This document shows, piece by piece, positions 1 through 23,262 of a stretch of 26,505 nucleotides of DNA. How positions within the stretch are numbered: position 1 is the first letter of the stretch; every line of letters starts with the position of its first letter. Position numbers and translations under genes: made by a program. Source of the stretch: Promethearchaeota archaeon (GTDB taxonomy: Archaea > Asgardarchaeota > Lokiarchaeia > Sigyniarchaeales > SOKP01); assembly GCA_048938855.1 (NCBI GenBank), contig JBHLLT010000033.1:1-26505 (forward strand), written 5' to 3'. A model generated the notes under the pieces. The model worked only from the letters and a program-made list of their open reading frames with translations. It was not told where the DNA came from and searched no databases.

Positions 1-1535
1 AAGACAAATTCCTTAAGTAATACAACTCTAATATCGGGATTTTGAACTGATTTTATACGATGACCTATACCTGGAATATTAATCTTAACGACATCTTTCA
101 TATATTTCACGAATTCATGTGGTTTCATTTCCTTTTGTAGGGCTTCTCTTATATATTTTGCTGCATCTGATATTGCTCCTCCAAATCTTGGACCAATTGT
201 TAATATCCCACTGGCTAAAGCGGACATAAGGTCTTTCCCGGCACGAGCAGTAATAATAGCATTATGAGCTCCAGAAACTGCAGGTCCATGATCGGCGGTT
301 AATTTAATTACCATTTCGATAAATTGTTGAGCAAACTCTGGTAACTCTCGCTTAAACCATAAAAGCCCAATAACATATCCAATTGATCGATTATTTCTGA
401 TAATTTCATCTAATCCAACCCCAGCGAACGTAGGAACATCTCCTCGATCATCACTAATAGTGACAACAACATCAGAGTGTCTTCTAACTAATCCTGTTCT
501 TACAGCTTCGTTAAAATCGGTGGGAATTTTTGGAGGTTCTACTTCTTTAGCTGGAATTAATTTTCCTTCCTGTACTAGTTTCTCATAGACTTTTTTAATT
601 ACTTTATCAAAATCTTCATAAGATTCAGGGACAAAAGCGCCAACCTCCCTCAGTGCTTCATTTTTTGCCTCCGCGGTTTCTCTATCACTTCCAGCCATCG
701 CTCCGGCGTGACCAAACTGAAGATTCTGTGGTAATATCCTAGCAGCTGTACCTGTGACCCAAATGGCAAGAGGTTTTCTAATTTTCCCATTTTTTAAAGC
801 TTCAACAATTTCATATTCTTCTGTACCCCCTATTTCTCCCAAACAAACAAGCATTTTAATATTAGGGTTAGCTTCATATCTAAGAAGATGATCAATTAAT
901 CTTGAACCAGGATAGCGGTCTCCTCCAATCGCGATTGACTCATAAACACCATCAGTGGATTGTGCAATCATGAAATTCATTTCATTACTCAAACCACCAG
1001 ATTTTGATACAAAACCTACTGAACCAGGGCGGTATAATTTTGAGAGAATAATATTTTCAAGAGTTCCTGCTGTATTAGCGATTTTAAATGAACCTGCTTT
1101 TATCCCCCCTACTGTGGCAGGACCAATGATAATTTTATTTTTCTCGTCTGCTATCTTTATTAAATTTTTGCTTTGTCTTTCCGGGACTCCCTCTGCAATA
1201 ATTACTACTACTCGAATTGTATCTGCTTCAAGAGCCTCTTTACTCGTATCATAGGCTGATCTAAAAGAGGCAAAATTTATCATTACATCAGCTTTAGGAT
1301 GTTTTTTAACTGCCATTGCAAGGCTTTTATAAACTGGGATAACAATTTCTTTACTTCCCCAAAAAGCTTTATGGTAAGCGATTGCTGCTTCTTGAGTATT
1401 TTGAATCATTGCAGCAACTGAAGGTGTTTTTCTTCTACATACATAATCGAAATCTAACATTCTTTGCACAGGTGCCGCTTGAAGTCCATATATTATAGCC
1501 TGTGTATCTTCATTAAATAATTCATAACTATCCAT
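1..1535 (-). CDS. aclA: ATP citrate lyase alpha (large) subunit, 3'-truncated by the window edge; absent from the ORF track
   Basis: Manual translation from ATG at 1535 gives MDSYELFNEDTQAIIYGLQAAPVQRMLDFDYVCRRKTPSVAA...INFASFRSA...IAEGVPE...GPATVGGIKAG...SKSGGLSNE...AIGGDRYPGS...QFGHAGA (phospho-His)...ADHGPAVSGAHN...IGPRFGGA...IPGIGHRIKS (citrate-synthase-like lyase domain). It abuts the aclB stop (TAA-ATG), with AGGAGTGA upstream. Confidence 0.96.
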   Translation of the reverse strand, partial: MDSYELFNEDTQAIIYGLQAAPVQRMLDFDYVCRRKTPSVAAMIQNTQEAAIAYHKAFWGSKEIVIPVYKSLAMAVKKHPKADVMINFASFRSAYDTSKEALEADTIRVVVIIAEGVPERQSKNLIKIADEKNKIIIGPATVGGIKAGSFKIANTAGTLENIILSKLYRPGSVGFVSKSGGLSNEMNFMIAQSTDGVYESIAIGGDRYPGSRLIDHLLRYEANPNIKMLVCLGEIGGTEEYEIVEALKNGKIRKPLAIWVTGTAARILPQNLQFGHAGAMAGSDRETAEAKNEALREVGAFVPESYEDFDKVIKKVYEKLVQEGKLIPAKEVEPPKIPTDFNEAVRTGLVRRHSDVVVTISDDRGDVPTFAGVGLDEIIRNNRSIGYVIGLLWFKRELPEFAQQFIEMVIKLTADHGPAVSGAHNAIITARAGKDLMSALASGILTIGPRFGGAISDAAKYIREALQKEMKPHEFVKYMKDVVKINIPGIGHRIKSVQNPDIRVVLLKEFV

Positions 1536-20004: not shown

Positions 20005-20790
20005 ATGAAGAGATTTGAAGAAAATAATGATATTAAAGAAAAAAATGAATATATTTATAGAATTAAATCAAGAAAAATTCGCATAAAACCTTTAGTAAGT
20101 TTTTATCTCAAAAGGGTGATTAATTCTCTAACGATCCTTCAGGGGATAATGACAATCTGTTTTTTATTTTTCTATTTTCAAAAAGTAATAACACTTGAGA
20201 TTATTATTTTCTATCTATATTTCTCAATAATAATTTTCATTACTTATGGTTTTTTGATTTTTAGTATTCATTTTTTAGAAAGACCTGATATTGAAAAAGT
20301 TATACCTGAATCTACGCAAATCTTAGAAGAGTTAACCGAAGTCAAACCTGAACTTACTGAAGAATTCTTACAAGGCAAAACTCTTCAAGTTTATTGGTAT
20401 TTTTTTACAAAAAGACAGGCTGGAGTTAGGGAGATTCAGAAGGCATTGAATATTTCATCCTCTGGAACAGTTTCTTATCAAATAACAAAGTTGTTAAAAG
20501 CAGGAATTATATCAAAGGATGATGAAGAAGGAAAGTATTCTATTAAACAAGATCTCAAAATAGGAATATTGAAATTGTTTGTTCGGATTGGTAATAGAAC
20601 TATGCCCCGAATTTCATTATATCTTTTAATTTATTCATTTGGTTTTATTACTTTCTTAATTCTCGCTATAATTCAAGGGATTGATTTCTTCTCAGACCCA
20701 ATAAATCTAACATTATTATGTTTTTTAATTATAGGTACAATAATTTTTATTATAGAATCATTTAAAATTAGGAAATTGAAACCATTATGA
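20005..20790 (+). CDS. Membrane-anchored winged-helix transcription regulator (2 TM - wHTH - 2 TM)
   Basis: GKTLQVYWYF...GVREIQKALNISSSGTVSYQITKLLKAGIISK...GKY is an ArsR-like wHTH, flanked by two N-terminal and two C-terminal hydrophobic helices. Confidence 0.8.
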   Translation: MKRFEENNDIKEKNEYIYRIKSRKIRIKPLVSFYLKRVINSLTILQGIMTICFLFFYFQKVITLEIIIFYLYFSIIIFITYGFLIFSIHFLERPDIEKVIPESTQILEELTEVKPELTEEFLQGKTLQVYWYFFTKRQAGVREIQKALNISSSGTVSYQITKLLKAGIISKDDEEGKYSIKQDLKIGILKLFVRIGNRTMPRISLYLLIYSFGFITFLILAIIQGIDFFSDPINLTLLCFLIIGTIIFIIESFKIRKLKPL

Positions 20791-20981
20791 TAAATATATA
20801 GAATTTTGTTAAGAAAAAAAGAAAATAGTATTAAGAATTGACTTAATCTTTTAATAAGTGATTTTAATTATCCCCTTTCCTATTGTATATAAAGTTAAAG
20901 GTATTTATTACCTTTATAATCGCAAATGTTTAAAAACAAATTCTTTAACTATTTTATTACATGGTTTAAGGATGAGAATAA

Positions 20982-22235
20982 ATGGCTGAAAATAACATAA
21001 AAACATTCAAACTTAATTTTGATGGAACTTTCGATGAGATATCTTATGAAAACATAAAAGAAGTCTTTACAATTGTAAATATATTAGCAATTTATATCAA
21101 AAAAATAAAAACGATGTACATATGGATTGGGAGAAATGCCACTCAAGCCTTAAAAAACCATATTTCTCAAATCCGTGTATTATTGAAAGATGAATTCCCT
21201 GATTTTCGAATTATCAGGAATATCACTTTTGATATGGGAACAGAACCATTTGAATTTTTTAATAATCTAAATATGGAAAAAGAAGAACTTTATGAAATCA
21301 TTAATTATCAAGAAAAAACAATTCTACCTATTTTAGAAAAAGTTGAAGGGTTAAAAGAAAACTCAGAGAAATTAATGCAATCTGAGCAATATAAAGATGC
21401 TATTGAATTATTAAAAAAAATAATCAAATTAGCTAAAAAGATAGAAGATGATGCTCTGATAGCTGAGCAAACAAGATTGATTTCTCAGTTAACAGAGAAA
21501 TATGAAAATAAAGAAATTGTTAATGAAATTGATGTAGAGACAAAAGAAATTGAAAAAGAATATAATTACTTAGTAAATAATAATAATCTATTAGAAGCCC
21601 ATAATTTAATCCAAAATTTTAAAAAAAAGTATGAAGGAAAATATAATTTATCATTAATCCCCCATACAAAAGAGCTAATTTTGAAAGAAAAAAGAATATG
21701 GTCTTCAGAGCAAGAGAGATTAACAAACATTCTAAGTAAACTTGAAAAAGAATTAAATTTCTCATTAGAAAGCCGTGATGTAAATAAAGCAACTGATATT
21801 TTCGAAGAAGGATTAAGATTCTTTGCTAATTTAATAGATGACAACATCAAGATCAAATGGAATGGGTTAGAAAAAAAAATACAAGAGACTAATGAAAAAA
21901 TAGAAAGAAAAAAATTCGAAGAAAAACAAGCTGAACTTAAGACTGAACTTTCGAAACTGGAAGAAAAATTCTTTGCATCTATAAAGATATTTGAATTTGA
22001 GGAAATGAACAATATTTTCAAAAGTAGTTCAAATTTTCTCTCTGAGGTTGTAGACGATAATATCAAGCAAAAATGGCAGGAATTTAGAGATAAATATAAA
22101 AATGCCACCCAACTTTTAGATATCATAGAATATCTGAGCAAAAATGCCATTAATGCTTTAAATAATCGTTCTTTTTCAGAATCTTTAGATTCTTTCACAC
22201 AAATTATAACCCATTTACAAGAGTACAAGAAATAA
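20982..22235 (+). CDS. Gelsolin-like domain protein with C-terminal helical repeats
   Basis: The N-terminal ~105 aa carry ILAIY...MYIWIGRNATQALK...ITFDMGTEPFEFF, matching the gelsolin pattern [IV]xxWxG..S/T...K...GxExxxF. The rest is E/K-rich and helical, with two repeats 72 aa apart ending DDNIKxKW. Confidence 0.7.
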   Translation: MAENNIKTFKLNFDGTFDEISYENIKEVFTIVNILAIYIKKIKTMYIWIGRNATQALKNHISQIRVLLKDEFPDFRIIRNITFDMGTEPFEFFNNLNMEKEELYEIINYQEKTILPILEKVEGLKENSEKLMQSEQYKDAIELLKKIIKLAKKIEDDALIAEQTRLISQLTEKYENKEIVNEIDVETKEIEKEYNYLVNNNNLLEAHNLIQNFKKKYEGKYNLSLIPHTKELILKEKRIWSSEQERLTNILSKLEKELNFSLESRDVNKATDIFEEGLRFFANLIDDNIKIKWNGLEKKIQETNEKIERKKFEEKQAELKTELSKLEEKFFASIKIFEFEEMNNIFKSSSNFLSEVVDDNIKQKWQEFRDKYKNATQLLDIIEYLSKNAINALNNRSFSESLDSFTQIITHLQEYKK

Positions 22236-22254
22236 AGATCTCAGGTGAAAAGAT

Positions 22255-23262
22255 TTGACTGAAGATAAAACAGAACCTATTGAAGAAGTAATGGAAAAAG
22301 AAGAAAAAAGAAAAATTAGAGTTGTTGAACAAATTGATAATCGACTCGCTATTCAAGGTCAGGCATATATAAAAGGAAAACTAAAAGAAGCTTTATCAGT
22401 TGCATATGAAATAATAGATTTAGCAAAACCAGAGAAATTGAATTCATTTGTTAAAGATCAAGAAGATTTAATTGCTCGAATTAAAAATCTTTTGAAAGAA
22501 AAAGAAGAAAGCGAACTTGAACAGCTGCATGCTGAACAAGAAAGAAAGAACCTCGAGAAGATAAATAAATTAAAAAATGACATAAGCAATTTAGAATATA
22601 GTTATAAAGCAGGAATGGATGCTGAAGATCTCTCAAAAACTAAAGAATCGATAGAAAAAGCAAAAACTTTACTTTCACAACTTGATAATGAAATGGATCT
22701 CAAGAAAAAATGGAAAGAATTTGAAATAAAATATTTAGATAACAAACTGAAGAGAGAACTTATTGATAAAGCTCAAAAATTAATTGAAGAGAGTATTACT
22801 CTAAAACAGAAATTTCAATTTAATGAACTTAAACCAAAGCTAGCAGATATTATAGAAAAATTTAAGGAAAATAATATAAAAGAACATATAGATGAATTAG
22901 AGTTTATTCAAAATGATATCTTAAATGATGAAAAAACTTACCTAAATACTTTAGAAAATATTGAAAATTTAACCAAAGAGATTAAAAATCTCCAAAATAA
23001 ACAAGATTTTAGAAATGCTATTACACAATGCGAAAAACTCTTGAAACTTGCAGAATCTATAGAAAAACTAGACGTGATTAAAGAATGTTCAGAGATTTTA
23101 GCAAATCTGCAAAAAGCTTCAGAATTTGAAGAATTGAAAGATTCAGTAAACAAACTAAATAATGAAGGATTAGATTTATTAAAAAAAGGAGATATCTCCT
23201 CTTCTCTTAAAAAATTTGAAATAATAAAAGGAGCTATAGTATTTTATTTAGAACAACAATAA
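22255..23262 (+). CDS. Helical-repeat/coiled-coil protein related to the C-terminal part of the upstream gelsolin-like protein
   Basis: TTG start with SD AGGTGA and a 19-nt gap; all-alpha E/K/L-rich sequence; shares repeat types with the upstream protein (ISNLE...DLKKKWKEFEIKY; DFRNAITQCEKLLKLAE). Confidence 0.75.
   Translation: MTEDKTEPIEEVMEKEEKRKIRVVEQIDNRLAIQGQAYIKGKLKEALSVAYEIIDLAKPEKLNSFVKDQEDLIARIKNLLKEKEESELEQLHAEQERKNLEKINKLKNDISNLEYSYKAGMDAEDLSKTKESIEKAKTLLSQLDNEMDLKKKWKEFEIKYLDNKLKRELIDKAQKLIEESITLKQKFQFNELKPKLADIIEKFKENNIKEHIDELEFIQNDILNDEKTYLNTLENIENLTKEIKNLQNKQDFRNAITQCEKLLKLAESIEKLDVIKECSEILANLQKASEFEELKDSVNKLNNEGLDLLKKGDISSSLKKFEIIKGAIVFYLEQQ

Follow-up and report, generated by a model that had tools for sequence, protein, structure and literature searches.

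A two-gene unit of Sigyniarchaeales encoding a divergent gelsolin-homology protein and a headless paralog of its tail: a candidate actin-linked scaffold

The window analysed here, 26,505 nucleotides (nt) of a Promethearchaeota archaeon genome from the order Sigyniarchaeales (assembly GCA_048938855.1, contig JBHLLT010000033.1; this is contig C53 of a 3.95-Mb genome that is 97% complete, and the G+C content of the window is about 30%), contains two adjoining genes, of which gene 1 encodes a protein of 417 amino acids (aa) with a gelsolin-like N-terminal head and gene 2 a 335-aa protein that resembles the tail of the first. The two genes are best read as an order-restricted two-gene unit encoding an actin-linked scaffold of headed and headless tail proteins, a reading to which we assign a probability of roughly 0.55. 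Both open reading frames (ORFs), the gap of 19 nt between them (positions 22236-22254) and the Shine-Dalgarno-like hexamer AGGTGA ahead of gene 2 are located as had been claimed in an initial annotation of this DNA, and all motifs quoted there for two repeat types, A and B, and for a C-terminal hairpin could be found in both protein sequences. AGGTGA is complementary to the sequence that is conserved at the 3′ end of 16S rRNA in archaea. The TTG start codon of gene 2 is supported by its homologues, as these begin at the same residue (consensus MTED...).

According to profile searches and structural models, residues 1-98 of the gene-1 protein form a true but divergent gelsolin-homology (GH) fold. 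A profile made from an alignment of 74 diverse family heads (A2) matched villin (E = 3.8e-8), ProGel (7c2f_B, 1.9e-7), adseverin (6e-5) and the Loki 2DGel (9.4e-4) in the PDB, with gelsolin-family chains only among its top matches, and the alignment with ProGel extended over positions 6-100 versus 4-93 of the 94 residues of the latter. With the single sequence, or with a narrow profile of close homologues only (A1), gelsolin matches stayed below the threshold (PDB E = 0.23-0.45, with 0.45 for 7c2f_B and the single sequence), and a search of the gene-1 protein against Pfam gave a sub-threshold match to MPK1_gelsolin_C (E = 0.12). The AlphaFold2 (AF2) model of the head obtained with the A2 alignment had a mean predicted local distance difference test (pLDDT) value of 88.2 and a predicted template-modelling score (pTM) of 0.80, and consisted of the elements E6-11, E17-20, H22-28, E34-39, E44-49, H55-71, E79-84 and H90-96 (E, strand; H, helix); an earlier model based on the shallow A1 alignment (pLDDT 46) was discarded, and the diverse alignment cured this problem. 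A Foldseek search of the model against the PDB yielded 105 matches at E ≤ 1e-3, of which the top 50 were all gelsolin domains, with the complex of ProGel and actin as the best match (template-modelling score, TM, of 0.82 by target). Superposition on 7c2f_B with VIA-align gave a Z score of 11.8 and a root-mean-square deviation of 1.9 Å over 88 of 88 residues. The independent ESM Atlas model of the gene-1 protein likewise had clusters of Asgard and eukaryotic gelsolins as neighbours. The gelsolin-like N-terminal domain postulated by the initial annotation is thus borne out by profile, model and fold comparison. W48 is the sole invariant column among the 74 heads, while G50, E88 and F92 are kept in at least 90% of them. 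An exhaustive profile search for the head returned 82 representatives, with protein lengths from about 300 to 1417 aa; where the GH domain is whole, it is N-terminal and lies within the first 36 residues.

The positions of the head that align with the aspartate and glutamate of ProGel serving as type-II Ca2+ ligands are occupied by I39 and T54, which agrees with the missing acidic residue that had been noted before. At position 39, all 34 close homologues have I, L, V, A or M, and in the wider family aspartate occurs in five of 74 heads at each of the two ligand positions. As acidic residues are this rare at these sites across the family, gelsolin-type Ca2+ regulation is not expected.

Judging from the sequences, gene 2 is an end-to-end collinear, headless paralog of the gene-1 tail. 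In BLASTP between the two proteins, the two repeat types were matched with E values of 2e-5 and 1e-3, and an hhalign comparison of A4, the family profile of gene 1, with A3, that of gene 2, was collinear over 322 columns (probability 99.9%, E = 6.4e-36), with positions 99-542 of the gene-1 family corresponding to positions 11-341 of gene 2. The claim that both proteins share repeat types while gene 2 lacks the gelsolin domain can therefore be refined to collinearity of the whole tail. At the level of individual modules, hhalign probabilities were 99.4% for B1 and B2 within gene 1, 99.1% for B2 and the B module of gene 2, 98.7% for the two y modules, 98.4% for the two A2 modules, 97.1% for A1 of gene 1 and A2 of gene 2, 96.1% for the two C modules and 94.8% for the two A1 modules, so that repeat A (94.8-98.4%), repeat B and the matching C-terminal hairpins all hold. 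From these matches the canonical gene 1 can be written as GH-A1-x-B1-y-A2-B2-C and gene 2 as A1-B-y-A2-C. The modules evolve at different rates: mean pairwise identity is 78% for the head versus 39-60% for the gene-1 tail, and 71% for module A1 of gene 2 versus 44-53% for its other modules. The slowly evolving head and the constrained A1 module of gene 2 fit with conserved interaction surfaces.

The tail is helical and probably built from hairpins, whereas the picture of an extended rod is an assumption. No significant match of the tail was obtained in Pfam, among PDB sequences or among PDB profiles, where a designed helical protein came closest (E = 0.026). TPR_2 was seen in module A of both proteins below the threshold (E = 0.06-0.08; 0.057 for module A1 of gene 1), with 14.0 and 13.6 bits against a gathering cut-off of 27, and neither a CH domain nor a spectrin repeat was matched in Pfam or, by sequence or profile, in the PDB. 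The fold families considered for the repeats at the outset accordingly found no confirmation: MIT identity was rejected (KATNA1_MIT reached only E = 1.2), membership in the spectrin/actinin group was rejected too, given the lack of any Pfam or PDB match and a head with a GH fold instead of a CH domain, no TPR match was significant, and structural neighbours did not exceed a TM of 0.39. The ESM Atlas model of gene 2 had a pLDDT of 0.85 and a pTM of 0.54.

The arrangement of a headed gene followed by a headless gene is conserved. More than 120 homologues of gene 1 were found, nearly all of 540 aa and including Lokiarch_48210 of Lokiarchaeum GC14_75, besides 84 homologues of gene 2 with 310-337 aa, and in at least ten metagenome-assembled genomes (MAGs) homologues of both carry consecutive NCBI locus tags. 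In GC14_75 a 540-aa and a 317-aa protein are encoded in this order ahead of aconitase; an overlap of 4 nt between the two genes (L010) is seen in another MAG, where methyltransferase and aconitase genes follow, and at locus L008 the gap is 22 nt. The window falls in an order with the families f1, f2 and f3, of which f3 is a sister family. The headed and headless proteins have 540 and 335 aa in genus g1, about 350 and 329-389 aa in g12, about 770 and 656-704 aa in g11, 750 and 392 aa in g5, 648 and 686 aa in g6, and 305-323 and 828-962 aa in g13. Within the genus of the window, the two genes adjoin in 25 other genomes, and gene 1 lies at the end of a contig in a further two; no genome of the genus has gene 2 alone. 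The expected co-conservation is thus found, as the genes adjoin across genera and are present or lost together. Among 400 genomes of the phylum, the A1 head profile found the head in 86 of 134 genomes of f1, in the one genome of f2, in nine of 14 of f3 and in none of 250 elsewhere; the tail profile was positive in 78 of 117 genomes of f1, in seven of 11 of f3 and in none of 203 other Asgard genomes. As these phylum-wide searches scored only some first-look candidates per genome, the absences outside the order are soft. The initial attribution to Asgard archaea at large was nevertheless too broad, since this head subfamily and the tail were found in one order only.

Complex prediction was carried out for gene 1 with the A4 alignment and gene 2 with the A3 alignment, alongside three controls. 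The three runs gave values of the interface score ipSAE (interaction prediction score from aligned errors) of 0.59, 0.59 and 0.58 versus 0.00 for the best control, with a pLDDT of at least 79 for the partner and full agreement of the runs on the contacts. In the calibration, 58 of 80 solved complexes and two of 110 mismatched pairs attained the mark for this score, but at 0.60 or below only seven of the 80 solved complexes pass, together with both passing mismatches. The heteromer that had been postulated thus received a pass of the weak kind; taking the prediction together with the genetic linkage, we consider its formation rather more probable than its absence.

To our knowledge, no prokaryotes other than Asgard archaea have an actin cytoskeleton that is regulated and resembles that of eukaryotes, and only profilins and small gelsolins have so far been tied to it. 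Based on the data above, gene 2 would have arisen by tandem duplication of the tail combined with loss of the head, and both genes would form one transcription unit. The homologous tails may associate to a hetero-oligomer, which the head would dock on Lokiactin without Ca2+ control, either where ProGel and gelsolin domain G1 bind or at the side of the filament. The headless subunit would then set the number of heads, and hence of actin contacts, per particle, and the length of the tail, changing by gain or loss of whole modules, would set the reach of the scaffold; in the genus, gene-1 proteins of 345, 417 and 540 aa occur, and in the wider family their lengths span 300-1400 aa. The slow evolution of the head (78% identity) is what would be expected of a domain binding a very conserved partner. 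If correct, a component of the scaffold or crosslinker type would join the short list of Asgard actin regulators and give an example of an actin-binding domain gaining functions by fusion and subunit duplication. The more ambitious version of this idea describes a Ca2+-independent actin-organising machine specific to archaea, in which the paralog ratio sets head number and capping, side-binding or crosslinking, and tail length sets reach. This version is tentative and on balance unlikely; if true, it would represent a functional analogue, evolved independently, of the spacer and crosslinker proteins of eukaryotes, with many cassettes diversified within the order that contains cultured Asgard archaea.

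Several observations weigh against an actin-linked scaffold. The gene-1 protein has no match to PF00626 (Gelsolin), its head is not among the four PF00626 matches of the genome, and it shares only 20% identity with ProGel; among the 74 family heads only six match PF00626 (best E = 1e-3). Gelsolin G1 inserts an apolar patch of its long helix into the actin cleft. The conserved residues on the presumably exposed face of the long helix (Q55, K58, R65 and K69) are polar or basic, where the assignment of this face is our interpretation of an i/i+3/i+4 pattern in the A1 alignment and not taken from a structure. The Atlas neighbours of the gene-2 model are BamD/TPR-like (TM 0.3-0.39, feature scores below 0.9). 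The complex prediction amounts to weak support, and the model may lay two paralogous helical proteins side by side. Moreover, neither gene was found in five congeners of 99-100% completeness in which every candidate was scored, and the cassette is hence dispensable. Finally, Sec23a has a gelsolin fold with no known actin binding (PMC7444086).

The precedent of Sec23a leads to the strongest alternative, namely that the head, comparable in this to the gelsolin-like domain of Sec23/24, does not bind actin but another conserved partner, or an acidic membrane surface, and that the pair is a TPR-like helical-repeat scaffold. The divergence of the head from ProGel and Pfam, its basic and polar helix face and the weak TPR-type signals in the tails would all be compatible with this, as would the gene order in f3, where the gene after a GH-tail gene encodes a conserved protein of 684-693 aa with TPR_12 repeats. 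On the other hand, both by sequence and by fold the head comes nearest to structures of Asgard and eukaryotic gelsolins bound to actin, it retains the W-x-G and E-P-x-x-F signatures, and activity on actin has been seen for those Asgard proteins with one GH domain and an extension that were assayed. We regard this alternative as a serious one that is nonetheless unlikely.

It is less probable still, and in our view improbable, that the two proteins act separately and that gene 2 is a retained tandem duplicate, either a competitor or forming its own homo-oligomer, with adjacency reflecting no more than duplication history. Tandem duplication by itself does explain adjacency, the complex prediction passed only weakly, and the partner tail lengths are uncorrelated across genera (540+335, 350+385, 770+660-700 and 305+830-960). 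Separate action fits poorly with a headed-then-headless order that, although the sequences diverge by 40-60%, is kept in at least six genera, the genes overlapping or lying a short gap apart, with the exact coincidence of presence and absence of both genes in the genus wherever contig ends allow judgement, and with the strong constraint on module A1 of gene 2 (71% identity).

The gene 1 of the window differs from the canonical form and is, from its alignment with the homologues, an in-frame deletion variant of the 540-aa family. Its residues 1-308 correspond to canonical residues 1-308 (82% identity) and its residues 309-417 to canonical residues 431-540, and in comparison with the closest canonical gene at the DNA level exactly 366 nt (122 codons) are missing in frame. 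The junction lies at 21905/21906, where A-rich microhomology is present. The deletion takes out modules y-A2 of gene 1, both of which are retained in gene 2. An assembly artefact was rejected as the cause of the 417-aa length, as the B1 and B2 DNA is too unlike to collapse and the junction is that of an exact 366-nt in-frame deletion. In a close relative an intact gene-1 form of 345 aa, with B1 and B2 fused, stands beside an intact partner, and two congeners have open frames of 347 aa; with such intact shorter variants in relatives, the module loss looks like tolerated length variation. That the cassette is instead decaying in this genome, with the 122-codon deletion as a first step to loss and a possibly functionless locus, is very improbable, for although the deletion removes y-A2 and congeners exhibit complete loss with short remnants, it is exactly in frame with both ORFs intact, shorter variants persist in relatives and the head is unchanged.

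The closest known kind, compared by published description, are the Asgard 1DGelX or GelX proteins. 1DGelX of Thorarchaeota SMTZ1-83 consists of a GH domain and a domain X for which helices are predicted; it has a Kd of 7.7 uM for rabbit actin and severs and nucleates filaments without Ca2+, and its head is reported to be 35% identical to ProGel (PMC7444086). Lokiarchaeota genomes are reported to contain two or three 1DGelXs (PMC9433394), B35_GelX of L. ossiferum has been described with disordered domains (bioRxiv 10.1101/2025.11.30.690169), and in L. ossiferum, for which gelsolins and profilins were named the main candidate actin regulators (PMC13716822), five of nine GH proteins were enriched with Lokiactin. 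Like gene 1, 1DGelX is Asgard-restricted, lacks Ca2+ ligands and has a single N-terminal GH domain, after which comes an extension that is predicted to be helical and belongs neither to the gelsolins nor to another known family. The gene-1 head is more divergent (20% versus 35% identity to ProGel, no Pfam Gelsolin match), its tail consists of modular helical repeats found in one order only, unlike the disordered domains of B35_GelX, and a headless paralog lies directly 3′ of gene 1, whereas none is described for 1DGelX. ProGel of Thorarchaeota (PDB 7C2F), gelsolin, villin and adseverin share the fold and the W-x-G and E-P-x-x-F signatures with the gene-1 head, and ProGel also its lack of Ca2+ sites; ProGel is a stand-alone domain of 94 aa and eukaryotic family members are Ca2+-regulated proteins with three to six GH domains, while gene 1 carries a single head on a helical tail of 300-440 aa. 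The likeness to alpha-actinin and spectrin drawn in the initial annotation is conceptual only, in that a putative actin-binding head would sit on a helical-repeat spacer that oligomerises, and the gene pair lacks the CH domain, spectrin repeat and EF hand of those proteins. TPR and other helical-hairpin scaffolds resemble the tails in the weak TPR_2 signals, the BamD/TPR-like neighbours and the TPR_12 partner in f3, but the tails remain below every Pfam TPR threshold and have no PDB relative by profile. No paper naming Lokiarch_48210, the gene-1 family member of GC14_75, was found in the literature.

Table 1. Coordinates of the gene pair, its modules and related features. Plain positions refer to the window; L, G and C numbers denote loci, genomes and contigs.
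Feature	Position	Strand	Remarks
Gene 1	20982-22235	+	417 aa; ORF; gelsolin-homology head and helical-repeat tail
GH head, residues 1-98	20982-21275	+	W48-x-G50, E88-P-x-x-F92; profile, AF2 model, Foldseek
Gene-1 module A1, residues 105-180	21294-21521	+	contains repeat A (QSEQYKDAIELLKKIIKLAKKIE); matches A2 and A1 of gene 2
Gene-1 module x, residues 181-243	21522-21710	+	no gene-2 counterpart; gap in profile-profile alignment
Gene-1 module B1, residues 244-308	21711-21905	+	repeat B, ends IKIKW; deletion junction at 3′ end
Gene-1 module B2, residues 309-377 (canonical 432-500)	21906-22112	+	ends IKQKW
Gene-1 C-terminal hairpin module C, residues 378-417	22113-22232	+	matches C of gene 2
Shine-Dalgarno-like AGGTGA	22243-22248	+	6 nt ahead of gene-2 TTG; read from sequence
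Gene 2	22255-23262	+	335 aa; ORF; TTG start; headless paralog of gene-1 tail; modules A1-B-y-A2-C
Gene-2 module A1, residues 15-85	22297-22509	+	best-conserved part of gene 2
Gene-2 modules y and A2, residues 166-292	22750-23130	+	match segment deleted from gene 1 of the window
AT-rich intergenic region	20791-20981	+	191 nt, 5′ of gene 1; presumed promoter region
5′ neighbour	20005-20790	+	261 aa
Two-domain gelsolin	L004:1429-2454	+	341 aa; Cys-rich, zinc-ribbon-like C-terminal segment
One canonical GH domain and extension	L007:862-1743	-	293 aa
One canonical GH domain and extension	L005:1159-1740	-	193 aa
Further GH-headed protein	L034:595-1857 (G000:C6)	-	420 aa
TPR_12 partner, f3	L037:3008-5062	+	
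TPR_12 partner, f3	L040:1100-3181	-	
Cassette remnant	L025 (G214:C180) 1213-1440		
Cassette remnant	L026 (G203:C92) 1417-1488		
Cassette remnant	L027 (G225:C181) 1350-1489		
Frame of about 1765 aa, matching stretch	G228:C9:11436-11621		
Frame of about 1765 aa, matching stretch	G208:C22:21286-21681		
Frame of about 1765 aa, matching stretch	G189:C1:2158910-2159242		

About half of the congeners contain neither gene, and this loss allows natural comparisons of presence and absence. Three congeners exhibit only fragments of 21-57 codons, located beside orthologous methyltransferase and aconitase genes; all three retain short pieces of gene 1, and one of them also codons 265-321 of gene 2. At this syntenic site, the fragments are what is left of a deleted cassette.

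Two closed genomes of the sister family f3 encode orthologous GH-tail proteins of 847 and 914 aa, with head relatives at E values of about 1e-38 to 1e-39. The 847-aa relative lies at L037:424-2967, and a relative of 867 aa at L038:3921-6524 on the minus strand. The TPR_12 proteins encoded after the 847- and 914-aa proteins share 30% identity along their whole length and have an N-terminal domain of no assigned family, and no detectable tail paralog follows the f3 GH-tail gene. As the partner in f3 is a TPR protein, the headless-paralog arrangement is documented for f1 alone. Some congeners have open frames of about 1765 aa in which one stretch matches the terminal part (A2-C) of the tail profile of gene 2 (E = 5e-12 to 8e-10), and the terminal tail modules are therefore also present in a giant protein.

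Besides gene 1, the genome encodes an actin of the Lokiactin type at L001 (G000:C79:23378-24490; 441 bits to PF00022) and four PF00626 sites in three other proteins. Two of these, with 293 and 193 aa, resemble the published 1DGelX type more than gene 1 does, and share the C-terminal motif S-S-x-T-Y-[DE]-E-[LV]-C-W-L. The further GH-headed protein of 420 aa was found with the A2 head profile (E = 1.2e-10); it has a low-complexity tail that is not homologous to the gene-1 tail, and its frame is broken by a run of unknown bases.

Methyltransferase and aconitase genes lie 3′ of the pair on the opposite strand. In the spacer 5′ of gene 1 a TATA-like TTTATAA is present at 20913-20919, a word that is expected by chance given a local GC content of about 0.25. 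The protein encoded upstream of this spacer contains a winged-helix segment (MarR/ArsR-like, sub-threshold) flanked by hydrophobic N- and C-terminal stretches that appear membrane-like by eye, and its gene is not kept beside the pair in other genomes.

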